A stretch of 64,000 bases of DNA from positions 46,524 to 110,523 of IMG/VR virus record IMGVR_UViG_3300000228_000004. The stretch is one strand, 5' to 3'. The notes beneath the pieces are model-generated. The model did not search any database. It worked only from the letters and a program-made list of their open reading frames with translations, and was not told the DNA's origin. Positions 1-45,311 of the stretch are shown in pieces; position 1 is the stretch's first letter, and the number at the start of each line of letters is the position of its first letter. This DNA comes from a virus. The translations under genes were made by a program, and so were the position numbers.

Positions 1-1705
1 ATGTATCTAATTCTAATAATTGAACCACATTTCCACCGAGATCGTTGTGTTCTTGATAAACTTTCTTCGCAGTTGAAAGTCTCTCGTATTTTTTTTCTAC
101 TGCTTTAAGTTGGTTCATTTCTTCATCAGATTTACCAGTCCTGTTTTTAATTCTTACCAGTGCTTCTTCGTAGGAAGTACTTAAAAAAAGTACCACTGGC
201 TTCCTTAGTGTCATATTCTTTAGTGTATCAAAATATGCAGCTATTGTATCTGATGGTATTGAACCCTCTAGATACACGCTAAAATCACTGAACTCTTTCC
301 TGTTTAATACTTCTATGGCATACATGATTTCTTTCTTCTTGAGCGTGTCACATCCCCCAAAATTAGATTCCACTCCATAGTTACCCAAAGAGATGAAGTT
401 ATATTTCGGAAAAACCGTGAAAATGGTTTTCTTAAAATAATTTGAATAAATTTTATACGAAAGAGAATCAGTTGCAAGCATTTGCTTGGGGATAGTTGAT
501 TTTCCGGCACCGTTCCCCCCCTTGACATACATGAAAGTTGGTTCACTTTTTTTAATTATTTCAAAAAAACTTTCATCAAATTTTTCGACTGGTGTATCAA
601 ACCAGTCATCATATAAATTAGGCGCGTAAACTTCTTTCTTAACGATGTCGAGTTCGATGTCCCCAACGAAGTTGAATGTTTCTTCGTACTCGTAAATTTC
701 TACTTCAGTGGGCATCTTTCTATTCAAATTTTCGGCGGAAGTTTTAAGGTCTGGTACTGACCCAACTACCCAAAACAGGGTTTTATCGTTTATCAGTTCT
801 GGGTGATTTTTTAATAGGTATTCGTAAACTTTCGCTTCATATCTATAATGAAATGTTATGTCATCTATTTGAATACCCTTAATGGTTTTAGAATACGGTT
901 GTTTCGTGTCGTGCCAAATGAATTCAAACATCGATGTGTCAGCACCCATTAAAGAAAGCCTTTCAAACATATAGTCACGCTTATCGACCCCCACATTTAT
1001 GAGGTGTATTCTTTTCAATGCCTTTGGCGTATCTTTATCATCACTTAACCCCAATAATATAGAAGTTGCTGAATTCGCTGAGCCGAATGGTATGATTAGA
1101 TCAGTGATAAAGGTTGGTATATTCTTTACCTGATGAGCGCCAACTTTATGGAAATCAGTTACCATCTTAGCTGAATTCACAGAAAGCCTATGATCCAGAG
1201 TGATATCTCTTTCAATGGTAAATGATTTCGGGAACTTTTCCATAACTTCCCCGACCCTCTTTTGTATATTCACATTAAACCCAGAGCCACTTGATATTTC
1301 ATACTTAGTACCAAACATAGTCGCGAATAAAGGAAGTTGGTGTTTATTTATAGCGTCGAAACTTGTCCCACCAGCCACTTGAATACACCGAAGCCCGTAA
1401 TGCTCTGCCATTGCGGCAGCCATAATGGTCTGTGGTGATGAGTTGACATTCGTTGCGTGTATTACTGTATCAGCACCCGTTGGTCTATTTTCAAATAAGT
1501 GAAGGAGTTGTCTACACTTAGACCCGTTCGCGGTGTTTATCCCGAAAAGAGAGAATTTATCTTCTCTCTTATAGTACATACCATCTGATTTCTGTTCCAC
1601 TGGGGTTAGTTCCCACATATAATCTTTCCACCGTTTACCTTCCGGAAGAGGAAAGGGTACAACGGAATCTCGTAAATCTTCATTCAGTGTAATTCTTTCT
1701 GTCAT
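1..1705 (-). CDS. PLP-dependent (fold type II) enzyme fused to P-loop 5-hmdU DNA kinase; 3'-truncated by window edge
   Basis: Absent from the ORF track because there is no stop in the window. Manual translation from ATG at 1705 stays open to base 2: MTERITLNED...YYKREDKF...NGSKCRQ (PLP lysine region)...IPFGSANS...LYDDWFD...MYVKGGNGAGKST (P-loop)...LGNYGVESNFGGCDT...VYLEG...LVRIKNR. Confidence 0.8.
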   Translation of the reverse strand, partial: MTERITLNEDLRDSVVPFPLPEGKRWKDYMWELTPVEQKSDGMYYKREDKFSLFGINTANGSKCRQLLHLFENRPTGADTVIHATNVNSSPQTIMAAAMAEHYGLRCIQVAGGTSFDAINKHQLPLFATMFGTKYEISSGSGFNVNIQKRVGEVMEKFPKSFTIERDITLDHRLSVNSAKMVTDFHKVGAHQVKNIPTFITDLIIPFGSANSATSILLGLSDDKDTPKALKRIHLINVGVDKRDYMFERLSLMGADTSMFEFIWHDTKQPYSKTIKGIQIDDITFHYRYEAKVYEYLLKNHPELINDKTLFWVVGSVPDLKTSAENLNRKMPTEVEIYEYEETFNFVGDIELDIVKKEVYAPNLYDDWFDTPVEKFDESFFEIIKKSEPTFMYVKGGNGAGKSTIPKQMLATDSLSYKIYSNYFKKTIFTVFPKYNFISLGNYGVESNFGGCDTLKKKEIMYAIEVLNRKEFSDFSVYLEGSIPSDTIAAYFDTLKNMTLRKPVVLFLSTSYEEALVRIKNRTGKSDEEMNQLKAVEKKYERLSTAKKVYQEHNDLGGNVVQLLELDT

Positions 1706-2937
1706 AACCACTCACTTATTTGTTTTTCTATGGTTGGGGTGATTTTATTATTGGTTTTCTTCCCATACCATTCTTTTTCTTTTTCTTCGTGATTAATGAA
1801 GAAATTATTTTTAAAAACTGGGTTATAATTTTCCATCATAATAACTTCCCCTGTTTTCTTATACCAATTCTGTTTGACCTTAACCAATCCTGGGTCATTC
1901 GGGTTATCTTCCATCCTAAGTTCAGAAGGAAGATATTTTCTTCTTGCTTCCCAAAAATCTTTGAAATCTATATCAGACCCATCAATTTCTTTCCAATCCC
2001 TTGTTTCTGCTTTTTTTATTCTATCATGGAACATATCATTATAAACATTAGGATATCTTCTATTTTCCCTGTGCCAACTCTTATAGCAACAAAGCGTGGA
2101 CTCAAGGGTGAAGTAGTTCACATCTTCAAAGAACGGTTCTTGTGAAAATCTTTCCTTGGCATCTGATAATAGTACCGCGCCCTCTTTTTCTAGCCAAATC
2201 ATAACTTCTTTGTTATGCCCGTTGACTATTTCTGTTGGTAAATCTTGGTTATCTTTTCTAACATCAAGATCATCCCTACCACTCACTACACAAAGACCGT
2301 TCCGGTGTGATTTTGAACCAGATTTATCATAAATGAAGAGACTACCGCAATCTATGTTTAATCCCATAATTTTAAGATACTCAAGGTATGAAAATGTTGA
2401 AAGCCTTCCATACATAAAAAAATCGTTAAAAACGGTATCCCAAACTTTTTCAAAATTTCCATAAACATCACCAGTATCACAAAGGTCTGAAAAATACCCT
2501 TCTTGCGTTTTACCACCCAATAATTCTAGGTAATTTTGGTACATTTCAATGAAGTGACCCTTTTGGTATCTTCTGTCGATATCATAGTCGAGGTTTTTCC
2601 AATATTCTCTATGCCATTTTTCCATGTCTTCTATAGAAGAAGACCTTAAAGAAGGGAAATGTTTAAATAACACCCAGGAAGTGAGTGGGTTTTGTGTTGC
2701 TCCGTTTATAAACGCGAACCACAATCTTGTCTCAAAATCCCAATCATGTTTCTTAGCCAAGAAAGGCATCACATAATATACTGCCCCTGGATGAGATTTA
2801 TACTTTAAATGGAACCCATAAAAATTAAGGAAAACTTCTCTTCTATATTCAGGCAACCGAAAATCAACGCCCTCTGCTAATTCCCTTTCTTCGACCCCAT
2901 TTATGTGACAAAATCTACCCAATACCATTGATATCAC
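1702..2937 (-). CDS. amino acid:DNA transferase (AADT / aGPT-Pplase2 family), thymidine hypermodification
   Basis: DFRLPEYRREVFLNFYGFHLKYKSHPG, DIDRRYQKG, GRLSTFSYLEY, GSKSHRNGL, LESTLCCYK and RRYPNVY motifs resemble M6/PaMx11-type AADTs. The likely true start is slightly downstream of the track start. Confidence 0.8.
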   Translation of the reverse strand: MISMVLGRFCHINGVEERELAEGVDFRLPEYRREVFLNFYGFHLKYKSHPGAVYYVMPFLAKKHDWDFETRLWFAFINGATQNPLTSWVLFKHFPSLRSSSIEDMEKWHREYWKNLDYDIDRRYQKGHFIEMYQNYLELLGGKTQEGYFSDLCDTGDVYGNFEKVWDTVFNDFFMYGRLSTFSYLEYLKIMGLNIDCGSLFIYDKSGSKSHRNGLCVVSGRDDLDVRKDNQDLPTEIVNGHNKEVMIWLEKEGAVLLSDAKERFSQEPFFEDVNYFTLESTLCCYKSWHRENRRYPNVYNDMFHDRIKKAETRDWKEIDGSDIDFKDFWEARRKYLPSELRMEDNPNDPGLVKVKQNWYKKTGEVIMMENYNPVFKNNFFINHEEKEKEWYGKKTNNKITPTIEKQISEWL

Positions 2938-3460
2938 CTTTTATGAATTCATAAATTTCCACCCATTCAACATAAGGGAATTCGTCACTGGGCGAGTTAA
3001 GGAAACTTTTAATTTGAAAAACTTTAGAATGAGGGGAAACATCCCTACAATATTTCTTATAGTCATCAACGAAATAATCACATCTCACGAATTTCTTATC
3101 AGAAGTGGACACAAACCCCTTAGAGTATGGGAAATTTCTTCTTATGAAATGTCGTTTCGATTCTTCATGCTCTGGGATACAACTTGATACGAATATTATA
3201 CCAATACCGAGTTCGTGGATTTTTTGTAAGTATATTTTAGCATGTTCAAATGCTTCTAATTTATCATATAACTTAGGGTCTCTCCAAAATTTCATTGGGT
3301 CATTATGATTTTTCATCAAGGTTTCTAGGTCATTATTCTCAGATGAAAGTGACCCTAAATCATCCCCAGTCAAATCTTTGTACCAATTTACCCAAGGGGT
3401 AACTGAGTCAACCACTGTTAAATCAACATCGACCGCGATTATTTTATTCATTTCAGACAT
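2915..3460 (-). CDS. HAD-family 5'(3')-deoxyribonucleotidase
   Basis: DVDLTVVD motif I and FVDD motif IV. Confidence 0.8.
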   Translation of the reverse strand: MSEMNKIIAVDVDLTVVDSVTPWVNWYKDLTGDDLGSLSSENNDLETLMKNHNDPMKFWRDPKLYDKLEAFEHAKIYLQKIHELGIGIIFVSSCIPEHEESKRHFIRRNFPYSKGFVSTSDKKFVRCDYFVDDYKKYCRDVSPHSKVFQIKSFLNSPSDEFPYVEWVEIYEFIKGDINGIG

Positions 3461-3583
3461 TTTTCACCTTTTTGTTCATTTTACTAAAGTAACCTTTCAG
3501 AAACCTTAAATCTTTTTAATAAACCACGCTTAGTATGTTTCATAGATTTAAGGTCAGTATAAGTTTCAGTTCCGACTTTAATT

Positions 3584-4225
3584 TTATTTGAATAATTTGG
3601 TGTTATCTTCGTTACCATTTTCATCAAATTTTGCATATGCATCAGCTGATTCAGTATAACCGCCGTCAACTCTTTCGTGGTTCAGTTTATTCTTCCCCAT
3701 ATATAATTGATACATATATTCAGGTGTCATATTCGCGTACCACCCAAGTGAATTTATCAGGTACACGAACGCGGTCAATGATTCTTCCCTTTGGTCTAAA
3801 AGAGAAGATAATGAAAATGAATTGATATCTAACATCAATCCACTAGATAAATTTTCCCCATTTTCATCAAATTCCGCTTTAGAGAACTCCTCGTGGCAAG
3901 AAATATAATCACCTAACAATTGTTCTATATTAGACCCGTAATTCATAATCAATACACTGATCGCAAAGTGGATAATATCAACTGCTTCTACTTGCATGTT
4001 ATTAAAGTCATTCTCTAGGAAAATTTTCCACCACTTCCAACCAGTTCCTGTATCACCAGTCCTAGGGGAACTTTCCAATAGTTCCCCTAACTCAGCCATC
4101 ATTGCTGAAATAAAGTGTGATTTTGGGATAATCTCAGCCCAATCTTCCCCTGAATACTTCTCATTTAATAATACCTGTGCGCTCAAAATTTCACTAAATT
4201 CATTTACTTTCATTATGTTAAACAT
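3584..4225 (-). CDS. dut: dimeric (all-alpha) dUTPase/dNTP pyrophosphatase
   Basis: AELGELLES, WKWWK, EAVDIIHF and KNKLNHER..GGY motifs of Campylobacter-type dUTPase_2. Confidence 0.85.
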   Translation of the reverse strand: MFNIMKVNEFSEILSAQVLLNEKYSGEDWAEIIPKSHFISAMMAELGELLESSPRTGDTGTGWKWWKIFLENDFNNMQVEAVDIIHFAISVLIMNYGSNIEQLLGDYISCHEEFSKAEFDENGENLSSGLMLDINSFSLSSLLDQREESLTAFVYLINSLGWYANMTPEYMYQLYMGKNKLNHERVDGGYTESADAYAKFDENGNEDNTKLFK

Positions 4226-4236
4226 TATTTTTCCTT

Positions 4237-4666
4237 TTATTTATGATTTGAAGTACTCAGTACTTCACCGTCCTTATCAACCCATTTTCTCAGTTTGAAA
4301 TCCAGTATATACATAGTTTTATCTGAATTTTCTTTGGCATCAATCGTGTGTTTTGTGCCCTTAGATTCCCCATCCCAGATAACCAAGAACATACCCGAAT
4401 TATCCCAGATGGTTTTGTTTCTTATAAAACCAGCACTTTCCATATTTTTCCCAATCAGCTGGGTAAATTTCAGTGGGAATATCATTTACTTCAGTATAAT
4501 ATTCAGCCATAGAATCTATCCCTCTTGCGCCACCTGATACTATAGTGTCAAATTGTGTTTTTAAACGCATAGAGTCTAAAATTTTTACCAAAAGGTCAAA
4601 ATCTTCAAACCCACGGGAACCAATGACCGCTAATCTTATCACGGGGGGGAGAACCACTTTTTTCAA
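4237..4666 (-). pseudogene. SLOG/YspA-like (DUF2493) protein, frameshifted
   Basis: N-half (LAVIGSRGF...IVSGGARGID...YPADWEKYGK) and C-half (SAGFIRNKTI...WDGESKGTKHTI) are in different frames, about 2 nt missing near 4438. Confidence 0.7.
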
Positions 4667-4683
4667 TCACTGTCTCATCCTTA

Positions 4684-5865
4684 TCAATGCGTTTTCAACC
4701 ACTCATCGGTTTGTTTTATTTCAGTATCTGAATCATTTGGATTTCGTTTATACCTATTTCTTGGTCTTCCAGTTTTCTGTTTCACAGAGACTATTTTTTG
4801 TAATTCACAGAAACTGTTTTCACACATCATAACATTTAATTTTCGATCTTCCTCTGGTAAATGGTCAAAAAGTTCACTATAATCAATGTGAAGTCCGCGT
4901 TTTTCCCATTCAGTCTCTATATTATCCCTGACCCAGAATAATGCTTCTTCGTGGGTCATACCGTCCCTGTCTTCCATTAAAAGGTCTATCCCTCTATCAC
5001 ATCCTGGCCCAGACACTACGAATTCATTTTCACTGAACTTGAATTCTGGTATATATGTTAAGTCAACAAATACTTGGTACGCCAAAAACCCAGCCAATCC
5101 TGGGATTTCTCTCAAAATATTGAATACTTCCTCTTGAGTATTCGCCCCTTGAACTCGAGTGGATATATCCGTGTTTTTAACCCATTGTATCATGTGTATC
5201 ATCCTAGTTGGCATATTTTTTTCTACACCAACTATTTCATACCCTTCATTTTCTTTAATATACCCCTTTGCTTCTTTCCAGGTCATTTCTTCTGTGTCAA
5301 TATGACCTTCTTTTCTTACCTCAACCACCATACCCGAATTCGTGCATTCGTACTCTAATGTTTTAGGGAAAGCCCAACTTGCTTTGAGCCCACCAGTGTT
5401 AAATGCTGGTGTGAAAAATGCATATTTCGGATTTTCTTTAGCATATTCGATAAATATTTCACGGAACGCGTCTATGTCTAAATTGTCAAAATCTTCTATG
5501 TAACCACCAAATAATTCTGATGTACTAGACTTGTTATATGTTCTGAAGAAGATAGAATTGAGGATCTTTACTTCTAGTGTTAGATTCGGGTTTGTGCTAA
5601 TATTCTTAATCAACCATTTAGACTCTCTATCGAGTTCACGCCTTACATTAGTGAATCTATAATTCTTGAACACTTCATCGTCTGTCCATTCTTGTTGTGG
5701 TAATTTTTCAATTTCTTTTCTTTTGTGTATATTGTGTCTTTCAGACATGAACAAATTATGATATCTTAGCACCTCTTCATTTAAAATCGGTTTCGCGTTT
5801 TTTATCTTTTCGATATCAACACCACAATATCTAATATCGGCTTCCTTTGTTTTCATTAAAACCAT
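4684..5865 (-). CDS. aGPT-Pplase1 / 5-hmdU DNA kinase helical-domain (HhH) protein
   Basis: ERHNIHKRK...WTDDEVFKNYRFTNVRRELDR, FLAYQVFVDLTY, GPGCDRG, ENSFCE. Confidence 0.8.
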   Translation of the reverse strand: MVLMKTKEADIRYCGVDIEKIKNAKPILNEEVLRYHNLFMSERHNIHKRKEIEKLPQQEWTDDEVFKNYRFTNVRRELDRESKWLIKNISTNPNLTLEVKILNSIFFRTYNKSSTSELFGGYIEDFDNLDIDAFREIFIEYAKENPKYAFFTPAFNTGGLKASWAFPKTLEYECTNSGMVVEVRKEGHIDTEEMTWKEAKGYIKENEGYEIVGVEKNMPTRMIHMIQWVKNTDISTRVQGANTQEEVFNILREIPGLAGFLAYQVFVDLTYIPEFKFSENEFVVSGPGCDRGIDLLMEDRDGMTHEEALFWVRDNIETEWEKRGLHIDYSELFDHLPEEDRKLNVMMCENSFCELQKIVSVKQKTGRPRNRYKRNPNDSDTEIKQTDEWLKTH

Positions 5866-7025
5866 TCCTCAAGTTTAAAATTTTGCTTCATATCATAACC
5901 AACTGCTTCTAACATAAGGTTAAGTGGTGATATGAAATAATCTTCCCACATTTTACCCCTATCAACATATTTTTCAAGCCCAGAGTCTGTTATAAAGTCA
6001 GAATCTAGAAACCCGATTATATCATCACCTAAAATGTTGGGTTTCTTTAAAATACAATATTTTATTTTATCACTGTCTGTTATTTTAGGGTATTTGGATA
6101 ACCCAGTTCTTTCTAAAAAAATATTGTAATTCATTGCCGCCCTTACATTCATTGGCGCAGTTAAAATTTTTCCATTTTTCTTAGTGGTGAATTTACCTAT
6201 ACCCCCCTTATAATCCAAAGACCCGATACCAGAAACCCTGCATATGTCACCCAATGGTGCTTTGTAGAATTTCTCTTCTATCTCAGATATAGAAGCAATC
6301 GTTTCTTTTGCATCGTTATCTAGAATTACATTCACCATATCTTTGAGATATTTCCTACAAAAGGGCGGAGTAGAAGATCGTACTATCTCCAACCCAGTGA
6401 CCGCCAATTTAGGGTCATCGACAAGTATAGACCCTTCGTCCCAAACGGCACGCAAAGCATATTTTTTCTTTGCAACAAACATCCCTTTATCGGCAATTTT
6501 TTCAAGTTTTGCCCCGATGGGCTTGGCACTAAATGCGTTGAAATTGTCTGAGAAAGAATCTATGTATTCTTGGACCCATACATCGAGGTATTTATGATCA
6601 AAATTAACAAGTTTATCAAGTATTTCGTGATTATTAGCGGTGTCGAATTTTTTTACTAATTCATTAAGAGTAAAATACACAGAGTCGGTGTCACCATAAA
6701 CTACAAAGTCAATATTGGTATTAAGAACACTTCGTAACTTCCCATTTACATAATTCGCCAATCCTTGTATAAATATCCTACCGTTCCCAGTGATACTTGC
6801 AGCAACATCTCGATTGAATAGTAAAAAGTGTATATTTGCTAGAGCACCATATAATGAGTTCATCGAAATCTTTAGAGCCATCTGATATACATCGAAATAA
6901 GCAATTCTAGTGTCTATATATTTCATATCTGCCGTTAAACCACTAACATCCAAATCGTTGATTTTATCAATCGTCATTGAACCGTCTTCTATACCATCGT
7001 AAATTTCTTCTATTGTCATGTTCAC
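5856..7025 (-). CDS. 43: family B DNA polymerase, C-terminal fragment (fingers-B, palm, thumb; gp43B-like)
   Basis: KISMNSLYG, SITGNG, YGDTDS, KKKYAL, GLEIVRSSTP. Confidence 0.95.
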   Translation of the reverse strand: MNMTIEEIYDGIEDGSMTIDKINDLDVSGLTADMKYIDTRIAYFDVYQMALKISMNSLYGALANIHFLLFNRDVAASITGNGRIFIQGLANYVNGKLRSVLNTNIDFVVYGDTDSVYFTLNELVKKFDTANNHEILDKLVNFDHKYLDVWVQEYIDSFSDNFNAFSAKPIGAKLEKIADKGMFVAKKKYALRAVWDEGSILVDDPKLAVTGLEIVRSSTPPFCRKYLKDMVNVILDNDAKETIASISEIEEKFYKAPLGDICRVSGIGSLDYKGGIGKFTTKKNGKILTAPMNVRAAMNYNIFLERTGLSKYPKITDSDKIKYCILKKPNILGDDIIGFLDSDFITDSGLEKYVDRGKMWEDYFISPLNLMLEAVGYDMKQNFKLEEWF

Positions 7026-10583: not shown

Positions 10584-10616
10584 ATTATACCGCAAGTTAG
10601 CTTAAAGTAAGGTTAA
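10584..10616 (-). promoter_or_regulatory. early promoter; distal TTAA overlaps the stop codon of the middle polymerase fragment
   Basis: Minus strand TTAACCTTACTTTAAGCTAACTTGCGGTATAAT. Confidence 0.8.
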
Positions 10617-11878
10617 ACAGTCTTCAATTTAGCTTGTAATGCTTTATACATTAACATTTTTCTCTTTACTTCTTTCCTAGTAGAATAAATGTTCCCTACT
10701 ATTTCGGGTATTATACCCTCATTGTCACGCCTAAAGAAAGCATTCATGCCAAAAGCAACATCATATTTATGCGTAACTTCTCTAATTTCAGCAAGGCTAT
10801 CAGGATTAAGGTACACTTCTTCATGCTCGTGTGTGTGATACTTAGCTCGTAAATTTTTCAATTCTTGAGGCAACTCATATTCATTTATATATGTTTCTGG
10901 TGACATATTAAAAGCGCGCATACCAAGTAACGGGTACATTGAGTTGACGTCGACTGAAACCAACCAATTATGTTTACCCTTTTGTGGTTGTCGAACATAA
11001 CCACCAATAATTGTTTTATCTAGGCGGCTATGTCTGTCGAACGGCATTACAAGTCCCTCTTTCATAGCAAGGTTAGTCAGATATTGCCCCCAAGGTTTAA
11101 CAGTGCCGAAGGAGTCATCCATATTAATACCCATCATTGAAGATAAAATTTTCATAAGCTCTATTAACTTCAGTTTATCCTCTAGTTTTTTCAGGAGCAA
11201 AACATCTTGTATAGAATATTCTATGAATAAGTCTTTATCCCCGTGATAGAAATCTACTATATCATCAAACTTCCCATAGTCAACCTTACCCTCACCAACA
11301 CCAAGTTCCACTTTAACGATGTTGTCCAATGCGTATGACACTTGTGGCTTAGTTACGAACTTTTTGTATGCTTTCATCATATCGATTAGATAAATTCCTT
11401 CCCAGTCATAGTTCATCCCTTCCATCGTTTTTATCTCTTTAACTTTATTAATTGGGGATAATCTTCTATAATTCACCCCGTCCAATTTCATTGCTCTGTT
11501 AGTGATATATGGGAAGTCGAATGAATCACCATTCCAAGCAGTTATAACCGTCGGTTTTAAATTTTCAAGTAATTTAATAAAATCTTTAAAAAGTTCTTTT
11601 TCATCATAGTAGTGTTTGAATATCAAATTATCATATTTCTTAAATTTGGTTTCGTCGACCATTTTGTCTAAACTTAGAATTATTATCTTGTTGCTATAAC
11701 TGTCGTATATCTGTATTTGTGAAACTGTCTTTTCAGCAAGCTGAGGATCTGGGAATGACTTATCTGCGTAATAACATGAATTTTTAAATAAAACCCATTC
11801 ATTCAATTCTTCATCGAATACTTCATAGTCAGTATAATCTTCAGCAAGAATCTCCGACATTTTCATTATTTTTTCCAT
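10613..11878 (-). CDS. 43: family B DNA polymerase, middle fragment (Exo II/III, palm motif A, fingers-A)
   Basis: FPDP, AWNGDSFDFPY, YSIQDV, GGYVRQP, SVDVNSMYP, GIIPEIV..IYSTRK. Confidence 0.95.
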   Translation of the reverse strand: MEKIMKMSEILAEDYTDYEVFDEELNEWVLFKNSCYYADKSFPDPQLAEKTVSQIQIYDSYSNKIIILSLDKMVDETKFKKYDNLIFKHYYDEKELFKDFIKLLENLKPTVITAWNGDSFDFPYITNRAMKLDGVNYRRLSPINKVKEIKTMEGMNYDWEGIYLIDMMKAYKKFVTKPQVSYALDNIVKVELGVGEGKVDYGKFDDIVDFYHGDKDLFIEYSIQDVLLLKKLEDKLKLIELMKILSSMMGINMDDSFGTVKPWGQYLTNLAMKEGLVMPFDRHSRLDKTIIGGYVRQPQKGKHNWLVSVDVNSMYPLLGMRAFNMSPETYINEYELPQELKNLRAKYHTHEHEEVYLNPDSLAEIREVTHKYDVAFGMNAFFRRDNEGIIPEIVGNIYSTRKEVKRKMLMYKALQAKLKTV

Positions 11879-21536: not shown

Positions 21537-21785
21537 TTAAACCCACTCTTCTATGTTTAAAAAAGATCTTTTGGTCGTTTGAAACTTAGCTTCGTTGTGA
21601 AACTTTAGGTCTTCTTCAAATGTAGTCCTGAAAGATTTGTCTTTCTTTAACATTTCACCTACTGTGTCTATATCTTTATCCAATTCTTCGCAATAAGTTG
21701 TTATCACTTCCAAGATTGAAATACCAGATAACTTTCTCTGTTTCTTGAACAGTAGAATATCTTGGTAAATACTAGAAAATTCCAT
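21537..21785 (-). CDS. 33: late transcription coactivator (gp33-like)
   Basis: ISILEVITTYCEELDKDIDTVGEML pattern, small size, acidic-aromatic C-terminus. Confidence 0.7.
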   Translation of the reverse strand: MEFSSIYQDILLFKKQRKLSGISILEVITTYCEELDKDIDTVGEMLKKDKSFRTTFEEDLKFHNEAKFQTTKRSFLNIEEWV

Positions 21786-34220: not shown

Positions 34221-34427
34221 TTAAATCCAAACCTTTTTAAAAATGTTCTTCATTTTTTTAAACAAATCTGGGGTATTGAAGTCTGTTCGATATTCAACCC
34301 CTATTTTATTCTCGCTCAAACCAACTTCAAAGTCAGATTTTTTCATAGAACTTTCGTTTATTATTTTTTCAGTATCGAATATTTCTGATAATTGAGAACC
34401 TTTTATATTCAGGGTATGTTTTTTCAT
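34221..34427 (-). CDS. hypothetical protein
   Basis: Overlaps the groEL stop codon. Confidence 0.45.
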   Translation of the reverse strand: MKKHTLNIKGSQLSEIFDTEKIINESSMKKSDFEVGLSENKIGVEYRTDFNTPDLFKKMKNIFKKVWI

Positions 34428-36031
34428 GCCTTATCCTCAAATATAGCAACTTCTGTTGTTAATAACATACCAGCAATAGAACTAGCATTAATAAGGGCAA
34501 TTCTTTCGACCTTCAATGGGTCAATGACCCCTGAGTCAAAAAAGTTTTCAATTTTCCCAGTAGAAGCATTAAAACCGTACTCCCACTGATTTTCGCCCCC
34601 GTAATCCATAACATCTGAAGATATATCCAATATTTCATCATAAGAATATCCAGCATTATCTAAAATCGTTTTGAAAGGGGATAATATAGATTCAAATATG
34701 ACTTGTTTCCCTCTTTCTTCATCTGAAAGTTCTCTTTCTAATGACCCTAAACCATCCATTAGGGACAATGAAGCATGGAAGAACGCGCTACCTCCCCCAA
34801 CTACTATCCCCTCTGAAATTGCCGATTTAGTGGCTTCAACGGCATCATCAAATCTATCTTTTTTCTCTGACATTTCAAATTCTGTTTGCGCGCCAACTTT
34901 TATGGTCGCAGCCCCTCCAGATAATCTAGAAATCCTTGTTTTTATTTGGTTTTTGAGTTCCCCATCATCCATATTCTGAACTTGAAGTTTGAGACCATCA
35001 ATCGTCAAATTTATGATTTCTTTATCTCCGCCACCATTCACTATAACGGTGCTCTGTGAATTTATGATAACCTTCTTAGCCTGCCCTAGATCATTTAAAT
35101 CAACTGATGCTAGAACTTTACCAGAACTATCGGAAACCAACGAAGCCCCTGTGGTTAAACAAATATCTTTCAAGAGTTCTTCTTTCATAGAACCAAAACC
35201 AGGAGCTTTCACGGGGTACACTTCGAGTATCCCCCTCATTTTATTGACTACGATAGATGAAAGAGCTTCGCCCTCTATCTCGTCAGCTATGATAAGCAAA
35301 GGTCTTTGGGTTTTCTGAACCTTTTCTAGTATAGGGAGAATATTTATCAATTGTGAAATCTTTCCGTCGGTCACTAAAATGAACGGGTCTTCAAGTTCGG
35401 CTCTGTTTCTTTCTTGGTTAGTGATGAAATGTGGGGAAAGAAACCCTCTTCTAAATTCCATTCCTTCCGTTATTACGAGCTCATCTTTAACCCCAGTGTT
35501 TTCTTCAACTGTTATAATACCATCTTTCCCGACTGCTAGGATGGCGTCAGAAATTATTTTTCCTATTTCAATATCACCATTCGCGGATATAGTAGCAACA
35601 TTGATAATATCCCCATCTTTTATTTCTCTTGATTTTTCTATTATGAAATTTATGACATCTTTAACCGCTTGATCCATCCCTCTTTTCAATGAATTTGGGT
35701 CTACTCCTTCATCAACCGCACTTAAACCATTTTTGAAAATTTCATTGACGAGCACAGTAGATGTAGTTGTCCCATCACCAGCTTCGAACGCGGTATTTGA
35801 GGAAACCTCTTTCACGATTTGGGCACCCATGTCTTGTAGTTTATCTTTTAAAAAAACTTGTTGGGCGACACTGACCCCATCTTTCGTGAGGTATGGTCTT
35901 TTCCCTTCTTCGTGGATGAGTACATTTCTCCCTTTCGGACCCATAGTTACTTTAACCGCGTCACAAAGGCTTTCTATACCCTGAGCTATTTTATTCCTAG
36001 CACTTTCCCCGAAAACTATTTCTTTAGACAT
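34424..36031 (-). CDS. groEL: chaperonin GroEL
   Basis: VKVTMGPKGRNV, TKDGVSVA, AGDGTTT, KAPGFG, GVIDPLKV; no GGM tail. Confidence 0.97.
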   Translation of the reverse strand: MSKEIVFGESARNKIAQGIESLCDAVKVTMGPKGRNVLIHEEGKRPYLTKDGVSVAQQVFLKDKLQDMGAQIVKEVSSNTAFEAGDGTTTSTVLVNEIFKNGLSAVDEGVDPNSLKRGMDQAVKDVINFIIEKSREIKDGDIINVATISANGDIEIGKIISDAILAVGKDGIITVEENTGVKDELVITEGMEFRRGFLSPHFITNQERNRAELEDPFILVTDGKISQLINILPILEKVQKTQRPLLIIADEIEGEALSSIVVNKMRGILEVYPVKAPGFGSMKEELLKDICLTTGASLVSDSSGKVLASVDLNDLGQAKKVIINSQSTVIVNGGGDKEIINLTIDGLKLQVQNMDDGELKNQIKTRISRLSGGAATIKVGAQTEFEMSEKKDRFDDAVEATKSAISEGIVVGGGSAFFHASLSLMDGLGSLERELSDEERGKQVIFESILSPFKTILDNAGYSYDEILDISSDVMDYGGENQWEYGFNASTGKIENFFDSGVIDPLKVERIALINASSIAGMLLTTEVAIFEDKA

Positions 36032-44245: not shown

Positions 44246-44278
44246 ATTATACCGTAACTCAGCTTAATTGTCGCTTAA
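44246..44278 (-). promoter_or_regulatory. early promoter
   Basis: TTAAGCGACAATTAAGCTGAGTTACGGTATAAT; TTAA is the stop of the upstream gene. Confidence 0.75.
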
Positions 44279-44754
44279 TTACCAAAATCAGCCTTGATAT
44301 GCTCCACAGTTTCATTTTCAAAACATATAGTGAAATCAACCATTGGTAAATTAGAAATATCAATATCTCCAGCATTATAAGATAATGTAAAATGTGGTTT
44401 GTATTCACTGAAGTCACTCACGAACCCATATTTTTCAACAAGTTCTGAATTCCTGTGAAAAAGTTCTTGTGAATGTATTTCAACAACAAGTGCTTCACCA
44501 TCTTTTCCGAATTTTGAATAATTAGTCGGGATTGCTTCTATTGAATATTCCTTAGACTCTATTTCACCGAAAAAAGGTTTTTTAGAGTATATAAGGGTAC
44601 AGTGTTGATCATAATTGAATTCAATGCCGTTAAGGTACTTGTTTGTAAATTCTTCAAGTTTGTCTATTGAAGTTTGTTTCATTTTTAATGCGATATATAC
44701 GCCTCGCGTATATAGTAAATCAGAAGAAAGTTTTTCGATAATTTCTCTAATCAT
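44275..44754 (-). CDS. 2H phosphoesterase, T4 gp57B/Acb1-like
   Basis: G.YIA, HCTLIYS and YKPHFTLSY twin HxT motifs. Confidence 0.8.
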   Translation of the reverse strand: MIREIIEKLSSDLLYTRGVYIALKMKQTSIDKLEEFTNKYLNGIEFNYDQHCTLIYSKKPFFGEIESKEYSIEAIPTNYSKFGKDGEALVVEIHSQELFHRNSELVEKYGFVSDFSEYKPHFTLSYNAGDIDISNLPMVDFTICFENETVEHIKADFGN

Positions 44755-45311
44755 AGTTGCCCCTCATATATTTGTAATACTTCAACCCCATTATCAGCTA
44801 GGTAAACTAATGCGGAAGAGTCACCGTATTCTTTACAGAATACAACTCTCTTCACTCCACTCGTAATAATAGCATTACAACATTCTATGCAAGGGGAGTG
44901 GGTGATGTACATTTCACACCCATCTATTCGGATACCATTTTTGGCGGAAAAATATATAGCATTCCGTTCAGCGTGAAGAACATTAGACTTTGTTCTTGTT
45001 TTCTTTATTACATGTACTACCCCAGATGCGCCACATGCCGTACATCGGTTTTTTGAAATATCTTCGCTATAAAGAAGTTTATTCTGGACTGAACAACCGC
45101 AAACAGAACATACATTTTCGAACCAATCTTCTTCACAACAGTTTTCCATTCCAGGGGGAGTACCATTATACCCAGTAGCTAAGGGTCTCCCGTCTTTTGC
45201 GATAACCGCGCCGACTTTCAACCTTTCGCAATTAGACATCTTTGAAAAAACGAAAGCTGTTTCTAATAGGACTTTATCAAATTTCTTTATCATTTCGTGT
45301 TGATTACTCAT
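44751..45311 (-). CDS. cd: dCMP deaminase with Zn-ribbon insertion
   Basis: KVGAVI, GYNGTP, HAERNA, SPCIEC. Confidence 0.93.
   Translation of the reverse strand: MSNQHEMIKKFDKVLLETAFVFSKMSNCERLKVGAVIAKDGRPLATGYNGTPPGMENCCEEDWFENVCSVCGCSVQNKLLYSEDISKNRCTACGASGVVHVIKKTRTKSNVLHAERNAIYFSAKNGIRIDGCEMYITHSPCIECCNAIITSGVKRVVFCKEYGDSSALVYLADNGVEVLQIYEGQL

Follow-up and report, generated by a model that had tools for sequence, protein, structure and literature searches.

The stretch of DNA considered here, referred to as the window, comprises 64,000 nucleotides and is the right-hand 64 kb (C1:46524-110523) of the IMG/VR virus record IMGVR_UViG_3300000228_000004, which consists of one linear contig (C1) of 110,523 bp with a CheckV completeness estimate of 71%. 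At the left end of the window lies a set of genes predicted to serve the hypermodification of thymidine in phage DNA, among them an open reading frame (ORF) that joins a pyridoxal 5'-phosphate (PLP) enzyme to a 5-hydroxymethyldeoxyuridine (5-hmdU) DNA kinase. Hypermodified thymidines shield phage DNA from restriction enzymes and are a source of new DNA chemistry and of new enzymes. All ORFs of at least 200 amino acids in the 110.5-kb record are located on the minus strand, and the G+C content of the record is 32-37%. Pfam and PHROG scans reveal a T4-like module for replication and nucleotide metabolism in the record, which includes topoisomerase II subunits, a gp41-type helicase, a split family-B DNA polymerase (PolB), an SbcC-like protein, ribonucleotide reductase, and GroEL; the phage is T4-like and uncultured. 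The following genes are found at the left end of the window, where coordinates without a prefix are those of the window and coordinates preceded by C1 are those of the record.

2-1711 (in full C1:46444-48234), minus strand: fused PLP enzyme::5-hmdU DNA kinase ORF, 596 amino acids from a GTG start or 594 amino acids from the ATG at 1703-1705.
1702-2937, minus strand: amino acid:DNA transferase (AADT; aGPT-Pplase2), PF18724 at 70.4 bits and phrog_3271 at 2e-77.
2915-3460, minus strand: NT5C-type deoxypyrimidine 5'-nucleotidase of the haloacid dehalogenase (HAD) class, PF06941 at 7e-8 and phrog_420 at 8e-32.
3584-4225, minus strand: dimeric all-alpha dUTPase (dUTPase_2/MazG-like), PF08761 at 1e-17.
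4237-4666, minus strand: frameshifted SLOG/YAcAr gene consisting of two overlapping ORFs (4400-4666 and 4237-4485), phrog_289.
4684-5865, minus strand: stand-alone aGPT-Pplase1 (HMUDK_hel) of 393 amino acids, PF18723 at 1e-60.
5856-7025, minus strand: C-terminal half of PolB, corresponding to positions 498-851 of 856 in phrog_262.
10613-11878, minus strand: N-terminal half of PolB.

The original prediction, which had been made from the letters of the window, listed genes for aGPT-Pplase1, a dUTPase, a HAD nucleotidase, and AADT. All of them were recovered on the minus strand where they had been placed, and the profiles of aGPT-Pplase1 and aGPT-Pplase2, proposed as a check, both matched. A SLOG gene named in the same list is present as a family at its place, but its reading frame is split by a +1 frameshift. 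The fused ORF is composed of the following parts.

1-556, minus strand: HMUDK_HMUD1 P-loop kinase domain (residues 386-596), PF18748 at 88 bits and at 90.9 bits in a second search.
260-274, minus strand: LEG motif of the kinase domain.
494-520, minus strand: Walker A motif GGNGAGKST of the kinase domain.
557-676, minus strand: linker of about 40 residues with the internal motif NLYDDWF at 599-619.
677-1705, minus strand: PLP domain of fold type II (residues 3-345), phrog_3650 at 2e-59, the family of the decarboxylases ViI gp226 and M6 gp52.
1061-1090, minus strand: phosphate loop PFGSANSATS within the PLP domain.
1517-1519, minus strand: codon of the Schiff-base residue Lys65 within the PLP domain.

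The 3' end of the fusion extends beyond the window, with the last 26 codons and the stop codon being located at C1:46444-46523. At its other end, the ATG overlaps the stop codon of the AADT gene (ATGA), which suggests that AADT and the fusion are translationally coupled. As judged from alignment and model, the N-terminal domain is, as had been claimed, a PLP enzyme of fold type II; it has the Schiff-base lysine and a two-domain fold resembling that of the tryptophan synthase beta subunit. In an alignment of 80 homologues, K65 is invariant, and G210 and S211 of the phosphate loop are invariant or nearly so. A phmmer search against the PDB returned a weak match to 1-aminocyclopropane-1-carboxylate (ACC) deaminase, whose PLP-lysine motif aligns with NGSK (K65). 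No direct match to Pfam PF00291 (PALP) was obtained at E<=0.01, whereas the more distant homologues P0027, P0029, P0031, P0123, and P0129 do match. The AlphaFold (AF2) model, which covers the PLP domain only, has a predicted local distance difference test score (pLDDT) of 95 and a predicted template modelling score (pTM) of 0.92. With this model, Foldseek found D-cysteine desulfhydrase, ACC deaminase and its homologue 1j0a, threonine deaminases, CysM, and TrpB at a probability of 1.0; matches in the PDB include 4d8t, 1j0a, and 1tzk with E-values down to 3e-10, and all matches are of fold type II. In the work of Lee et al., 1j0a was also the template for the alignment of ViI gp226 (PMC8989533).

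The function of this domain would be that of a decarboxylase acting on an amino-acid:nucleobase conjugate. This is inferred because it shares 31-33% identity with the PLP gene of cultured-phage-sized records (about 152-160 kb) in the viral collection, because its tblastn matches among cultured phages are mostly in Salmonella and other enterobacterial phages of the ViI-like (Ackermannviridae) type, and because family members have been assayed: as described by Lee et al., those of ViI and M6 decarboxylate O-seryl-thymidine and C-alpha-glycyl-thymidine in DNA (PMC8989533).

For the C-terminal domain, the kinase motifs GGNGAGKST and LEG pointed out in the original prediction are in place, and the profile search it had suggested gave the PF18748 match listed above. 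In comparison with ten stand-alone kinases, of which the nearest is 51% identical, all residues that are invariant among the ten are kept in the fusion, namely Walker A, the E and G of LEG, two arginines, and one lysine. This conservation predicts catalytic activity for the fused kinase domain.

The in-frame fusion, likewise claimed at the outset, is genuine. Contigs of three sequencing runs, X1 (a soil metagenome of 2012), X3 (a biofilm metagenome of 2014), and X5 (a biofilm metagenome of 2019 from another study), span at least positions 1-1977 of the window and agree there in every letter (0 differences, 0 gaps); the record's own source can be at most one of these runs. Word depths in the three fusion-covering runs are 27, 32, and 6. 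The identical fusion protein (P0003) is present on 4 contigs of the protein collection, and a second fusion of the same domain order (P0004) shares 52% identity over 97% of the length; the order PLP::HMUDK_HMUD1 was seen in only these two 90%-identity clusters. That an error of assembly or sequencing created the long ORF by merging two adjacent genes is hardly conceivable. Such an artefact might be imagined, given that the cultured Pseudomonas phage Cygsa01 (PP179332) has both genes adjacent to each other with just 38 nt in between and that the SLOG gene 3 kb away is frameshifted. It is contradicted by the letter-identical contigs from different runs, studies, and years, by the existence of P0004, and by the nature of the junction, which is an open linker of 40 residues rather than a lost stop codon.

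The origin of the fusion can be traced in the three closest relatives (L008, L009, and L017). All of them share the gene order PolB, Pplase1, dUTPase, NT5C, AADT, PLP, HMUD2 and, further on, a thymidylate synthase (TS)-like gene; in L009 and L017, the order runs on to unk268 and two deoxynucleoside monophosphate (dNMP) kinases. In each of the three, the PLP gene stands alone, with a length of about 350 amino acids, and is immediately followed by HMUD2. L009 lies within a complete genome of 154,998 bp bearing terminal repeats (G001), and no match to PF18748 (HMUDK_HMUD1) was found anywhere in this genome. Since the closest syntenic relatives have a stand-alone PLP gene, and the complete one is devoid of HMUDK_HMUD1, the fusion is, on this comparison, a lineage-specific gain, in which a gp67-type kinase domain was added at the 3' end of the PLP gene. 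In L008, L009, and L017, the C-terminal residues of the unfused PLP enzyme are ...NEWIGE, ...DEWLKESE, and ...IENW, respectively, and the linker of P0004 retains LDDW. The motif NLYDDWF in the linker looks like a relic of this acidic-Trp tail, which the addition of the kinase domain would have buried inside the protein.

For the interpretation of the cluster, a number of genes to the left of the window and one distant gene within it are of importance.

C1:41929-42735, 3.8-4.6 kb left of the window: 2-oxoglutarate (2OG)-Fe(II) oxygenase of 268 amino acids with invariant HxD...H...R.
C1:42947-44041, 2.5 kb left of the window: TS-family candidate dUMP hydroxymethylase of 364 amino acids, PF00303 at 39.6 bits and phrog_3676 at 1e-80.
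C1:44278-44907: 209-amino acid protein whose predicted fold resembles that of restriction endonucleases (PvuII/DpnI-like), to be taken only as a lead.
C1:45140-45733: DenB-like endonuclease IV, phrog_1360.
Directly downstream of the fusion: HMUD2-like kinase of 228 amino acids with the Walker A motif GSNGSGKST.
44751-45311, minus strand: dCMP deaminase, PF00383 at 1e-22.

The dCMP deaminase is found at the position given in the original prediction, and the dUMP hydroxymethylase that was to be sought left of the window has a candidate there. The nearest cultured relatives of the latter are found in ViI-like (Ackermannviridae), Vibrio, and M6-like phages and include SPO1 gp29; one of the cultured relatives is annotated as deoxyuridylate hydroxymethyltransferase. 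The catalytic Cys is present, and in a HMMER alignment the motif sINIf is placed on pFNIa of the Lactobacillus casei TS, so that the specificity residue is Asn, as compared with Asp in the CMP hydroxymethylase MilA. The enzyme is, therefore, a candidate for a uracil-specific hydroxymethylase. Neither ThyX nor a second TS gene was found in the 110-kb record. The best PDB sequence match of the enzyme is MilA, which might indicate that the cluster decorates hydroxymethylcytosine instead of hydroxymethyluracil. This is most improbable; at the pyrimidine-specificity position the enzyme has the Asn of TS where MilA has Asp, two families of 5-hmdU DNA kinases are present together with dCMP deaminase and the dUTPase/NT5C pair, and the nearest cultured relatives of the hydroxymethylase are all from 5-hmdU phages. 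The cytosine reading was rejected on account of the Asn residue and the kinases.

The region probably forms the core of a pathway of the ViI type for the post-replicative hypermodification of thymidine, based on 5-hmdU, in which the enzymatic activities and the product are predicted from domain identities, intact catalytic motifs, and synteny. In the first step, dCMP deaminase would supply dUMP, which would be converted into 5-hmdUMP by the TS-family enzyme with its uracil-type Asn and catalytic Cys. Two phage dNMP kinases would raise 5-hmdUMP towards the triphosphate, while dUTPase_2 and NT5C would drain dUTP, dTTP, and dTMP from the pool. In this control of the pool, NT5C would hold dTTP down as a dTMP/dUMP phosphatase, and dUTPase_2 would act as a dUTPase and possibly also as a dTTPase; the linkage of NT5C to PolB and the PLP gene is also observed in the cultured-phage-sized records of the viral collection. 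After insertion of 5-hmdU into DNA by the polymerase, the base would be phosphorylated by the HMUDK_HMUD1 domain of the fusion, the HMUD2-like kinase, or both. AADT would then swap the phosphate for an amino acid. From this the PLP domain, homologous to ViI gp226 and M6 gp52, for which decarboxylation is proven, would strip the carboxylate. This order of steps, that is, kinase, serine:DNA transferase, and PLP decarboxylase, corresponds to that of the system whose roles were proven in vitro by Lee et al. (PMC8989533).

The set of Salmonella phage ViI (Ackermannviridae) is composed of the kinase gp67, the second kinase gp243, the PLP enzyme gp226, PPlase1 gp160, and PPlase2 gp247, which is the serine:DNA transferase, with no radical S-adenosylmethionine (rSAM) enzyme, and these five genes suffice for the formation of 5-(2-aminoethoxy)methyldeoxyuridine (5-NeOmdU) (PMC5889632, Table 3). 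By sequence, the gene complement of the present phage is made up of the same five families. Its Pplase1 is the homologue of ViI gp160 and is about 40% identical, over 94-97% of the length and at a single place, in records of ViI-like (Ackermannviridae) and Vibrio phages. An rSAM gene, which was to be sought left of the window, was not found in the 110 kb of the record. Since no rSAM isomerase was detected, the PLP step would require an adduct with a free alpha-amine, as in the conversion of O-seryl-thymidine into 5-NeOmdU; the leading candidate for the product is, by analogy, 5-NeOmdU or a close analogue. Concerning the original prediction of 5-hmdU together with an amino-acid-derived modification of thymidine, the gene set of the 5-hmdU type, including hydroxymethylase and kinases, is indeed present, but new chemistry is not shown by a gene set that equals that of ViI; it is possible, with the divergent AADT as the one feature that points to it.

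Several observations weigh against a plain ViI-type pathway; besides the divergent AADT, discussed below, they concern the kinases and the extent of the record. In the kinase part of P0004, the Walker A motif is degenerate (GSKESNKIT); its glycines and Ser are lost, as are GGCD and LEG, so that catalysis by the fused kinase domain may not be needed. With PF18747, the HMUD2-like protein reaches 21.6-24.3 bits, below the Pfam cut-off of 25, as compared with 27.7-37.4 bits for the three syntenic orthologues. Its BLASTP match to a true HMUD2 domain has an E-value of 6e-5, and a tblastn search against cultured phages gave no match to it. Finally, the record is incomplete, and an rSAM gene or another tailoring gene could be located in the missing 29%.

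From the decay of the kinase part in P0004, the sole other fusion of the same order that was found, and from the presence of HMUD2 alone in the closest relatives, one complete genome included, it might be concluded that the fused domain is not a working 5-hmdU kinase. HMUD2 would then carry out the phosphorylation, and the fused part would mainly hold the PLP enzyme on DNA containing 5-hmdU or its phosphorylated form (5-PmdU), or would be a redundant recent acquisition. We regard this as unlikely for the protein of the present phage, in which the residues invariant among stand-alone kinases (Walker A, E-G, two Arg, and Lys) are all kept; moreover, two active kinases are likewise retained by ViI, according to Lee et al. 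(PMC8989533). In some lineages, the fused kinase may nevertheless be redundant with HMUD2. The picture that emerges is one of reshuffled modules, in which one lineage acquired a second kinase by fusion and a sister lineage is losing it.

The identification of the AADT itself is based on the 70.4 bits obtained with PF18724 in the profile search of the record, where the cut-off is 26.2. In three hmmscan runs, PF18724 was not reported for this protein, and 11 of the 21 aligned homologues pass; this silence is treated as a filter artefact. The protein is 72-79% identical to its counterparts in the syntenic relatives L008, L009, and L017, and 46-50% identical to the AADT part of fused ORFs of 712 amino acids, the length of the PF18724-carrying proteins P0010 and P0011. 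Searches of the PDB by sequence and by profile matched no solved AADT; structures of this kind of enzyme have been solved for PaMx11, YuA, and 15599. In most of the 79 viral loci compared, to which the P0004 locus does not belong, AADT and PLP genes are adjacent to each other.

The relationship of this AADT to the ViI enzyme is distant. Homologues in ViI-like (Ackermannviridae) phages, which occur at a single place and are taken to be those of gp247, are just 27-28% identical (tblastn, E 1e-23), as compared with 44-58% for the AADTs located beside PLP genes in dozens of viral contigs. These sequences form a large clade distinct from the ViI type, for which no characterised cultured member was found, and owing to this divergence the donor may not be serine. 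The pathway logic would then be the same, but the AADT would use a donor other than serine or glycine, resulting in an undescribed thymidine base, for example, a decarboxylated Thr, Cys, Orn, Lys, or diaminobutyrate adduct, perhaps tailored further. We consider this possible, albeit not probable. In its favour, the 27-28% identity of AADT contrasts with 33-41% for PLP, Pplase1, and hydroxymethylase in ViI-like and Vibrio phages, and the ten host names that occur most often in the tblastn search with AADT do not include M6-like Pseudomonas phages. As reported for phage 15599, a few pocket residues set the donor of Pplase2, two of them being able to switch it, and many Pplase2 clusters are uncharacterised (PMC13458397). 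A conserved 2OG-Fe(II) oxygenase of the prolyl-4-hydroxylase (P4H)-like type in the gene block might serve the further tailoring. Against these points stand the gene complement, which is exactly that of ViI, and the PLP step, which limits the donors to those leaving a free alpha-amino acid; as for the oxygenase, it is of the protein prolyl-hydroxylase type, neither TET/JBP nor AlkB, and nothing ties it to DNA. A ViI-type pathway leading to 5-NeOmdU or a close analogue continues to be preferred. The common AADT clade, usually found beside a PLP gene, merits experiment more than the fusion itself does.

The clade extends to mycobacteriophages, and gp02 of mycobacteriophage Fortunato is 42% identical to the present AADT in tblastn. 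The closest cultured homologue is the C-terminal part of a hypothetical protein of 522 amino acids in cluster-B mycobacteriophages (L007, Fortunato gp02-gp03), and in Fortunato it adjoins a gene annotated as terminase small subunit. The same label is attached to PHROG 800, the 5-HMUDK family, so that annotations as terminase small subunit may hide kinases.

A further observation concerns the C-termini of the enzymes. A C-terminus of the type [DE]-W-[FLIVM] is found in 6 of the 154 ORFs, as compared with 0.3 expected from shuffled sequences (maximum 3 in 500 shuffles). The six are PolB, AADT, Pplase1, HMUD2, a 351-amino acid protein at C1:27068-28123, and an ORF of 82 amino acids, with tail sites at 1702-1716, 4684-4700, 5856-5870, and 21537-21550 in the window and at C1:45724-45740 and C1:27068-27080 in the record; a protein in the RNase H position is among those ending in an acidic-Trp-hydrophobic tail. 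AADT terminates in ...ISEWL, Pplase1 in ...DEWLKTH, and the C-terminal half of PolB in ...EEWF, with its stop codon overlapping the start of Pplase1. Similar acidic-Trp tails are present on PolB, AADT, Pplase1, HMUD2, and the stand-alone PLP enzyme of L008, L009, and L017. The common tail suggests that polymerase and modification enzymes dock onto one shared partner, for example, the sliding clamp. Tentatively, and with more doubt than confidence, it may be proposed that the AADT and PLP pair of this clade installs a chemically undescribed thymidine modification and that all enzymes of the set may be active at the replication fork as well. If this were true, the fusion, by burying the PLP tail (NLYDDWF), would physically tie decarboxylation to phosphorylation.

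As to the other genes in the block, the three located between hydroxymethylase and fusion are the 209-amino acid protein, the DenB-like endonuclease, and the HMUD2-like protein. T4 DenB acts on dC-containing DNA. By analogy, the restriction-endonuclease-like and DenB-like proteins, lying within a modification block, may degrade unmodified, T-containing host DNA. The gene of the 2OG-Fe(II) oxygenase has that of the hydroxymethylase on one side and those of the dNMP kinases on the other, with conserved synteny in L009 and L017; the AF2 model of the enzyme has a pLDDT of 93 and matches prolyl-4-hydroxylases (PHD2 and Pseudomonas P4H), and the protein was rejected as a tailoring enzyme because of this fold and the lack of any tie to DNA. 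Further to the left, a thymidylate-kinase-like protein and a dNMP kinase are encoded. The halves of the SLOG gene match positions 22-99 and 93-151 of phrog_289. The +1 frameshift is located near 4435, where the conserved motif passes from ...DWEKYGK in the first frame to AGFIRN in the second. The gene could be a pseudogene, the shift could be programmed, or the sequence could contain an error. In L009, only about 200 bases separate the PPlase1 and dUTPase genes. The two halves of PolB are about 3.6 kb apart, and for the four ORFs checked between them no Pfam match was found; in L008, L009, and L017, the C-terminal part of PolB is likewise an ORF of about 390-410 amino acids. Two additional features of the window are as follows.

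44275-44754: Acb1 anti-CBASS phosphodiesterase, directly downstream of the dCMP deaminase, PF23474 at 6e-26.
34424-36031: GroEL, phrog_5725 at 2e-147.

With regard to the host, there are only hints, namely the low G+C content of 34%, the soil and biofilm labels of the confirming runs, and one GroEL match. The phage GroEL has one relative among the genome contigs, the bacterium's own chaperonin in a Candidatus Sulfurimonas ponti metagenome-assembled genome, but the 51% identity is too weak to name a host, and a host among the Campylobacterota is no more than a possibility. Cave and aquifer runs with small word shares were not counted as evidence of habitat. It had been remarked that characterised Campylobacter phages modify guanine; this is correct according to the literature and will bear on the present phage once its host is known.

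When compared with known systems, the fusion, although genuine, belongs to a kind that has already been published; its exact form is rare. The assumption that PLP enzyme and kinase are separate genes elsewhere did not hold, since metagenomic contigs with a 5-HMUDK::PLP enzyme and with a triple 5-HMUDK/PLP/AADT fusion are described by Lee et al. (NAR 2022; Fig. 2, sequences 14-16; PMC8989533). The idea of hypermodification enzymes joined in frame is shared; here, PLP is N-terminal and HMUDK_HMUD1 is C-terminal, an order that the published 5-HMUDK::PLP example may share. Other fusions among the 50%-identity representatives are AADT::PLP, PLP::AADT, HMUD2::PLP::AADT (1278 amino acids), an AAA_18 P-loop domain::PLP, PLP::Ploopntkinase3, and a DNA methylase::PLP. 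In Cygsa01, the PLP gene is followed by the kinase and then by a TS-like gene and a dNMP kinase; the same two modules are thus found in the same order, but as separate genes, which are annotated as "threonine ammonia lyase" and "baseplate hub."

Bacillus phage SP10 offers a different combination, with gp186 being a kinase::aGPT-Pplase1 fusion. This architecture underlies the Pfam name "HMUDK helical domain." A kinase P-loop domain and a Pplase1 helical domain are present in both phages and presumably cooperate, but here the helical domain is a free-standing protein of 393 amino acids, as it is in ViI, and it is the PLP enzyme to which the kinase is joined. The pathway of Pseudomonas phage M6 to 5-(2-aminoethyl)deoxyuridine (5-NedU), encoded by gp51 (AADT), gp52 (PLP), gp53 (rSAM), and gp54 (kinase), follows the same logic of kinase, AADT, and PLP enzyme in a tight operon, whereas no rSAM isomerase was detected in the present record. 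The closest correspondence is with ViI, with which the five families and the lack of a recognised rSAM gene are shared; PLP, PolB, NT5C, and AADT in one neighbourhood are also a feature of the cultured-phage-sized records of about 152-160 kb. In contrast to ViI, the PLP enzyme and the gp67-type kinase form one polypeptide, the AADT belongs to another clade, and habitat and host differ, the phage being uncultured. Whereas the genes are scattered in ViI, they are tightly clustered here, and the locus would represent a compact, fully linked ViI-type pathway from an environmental T4-like phage.

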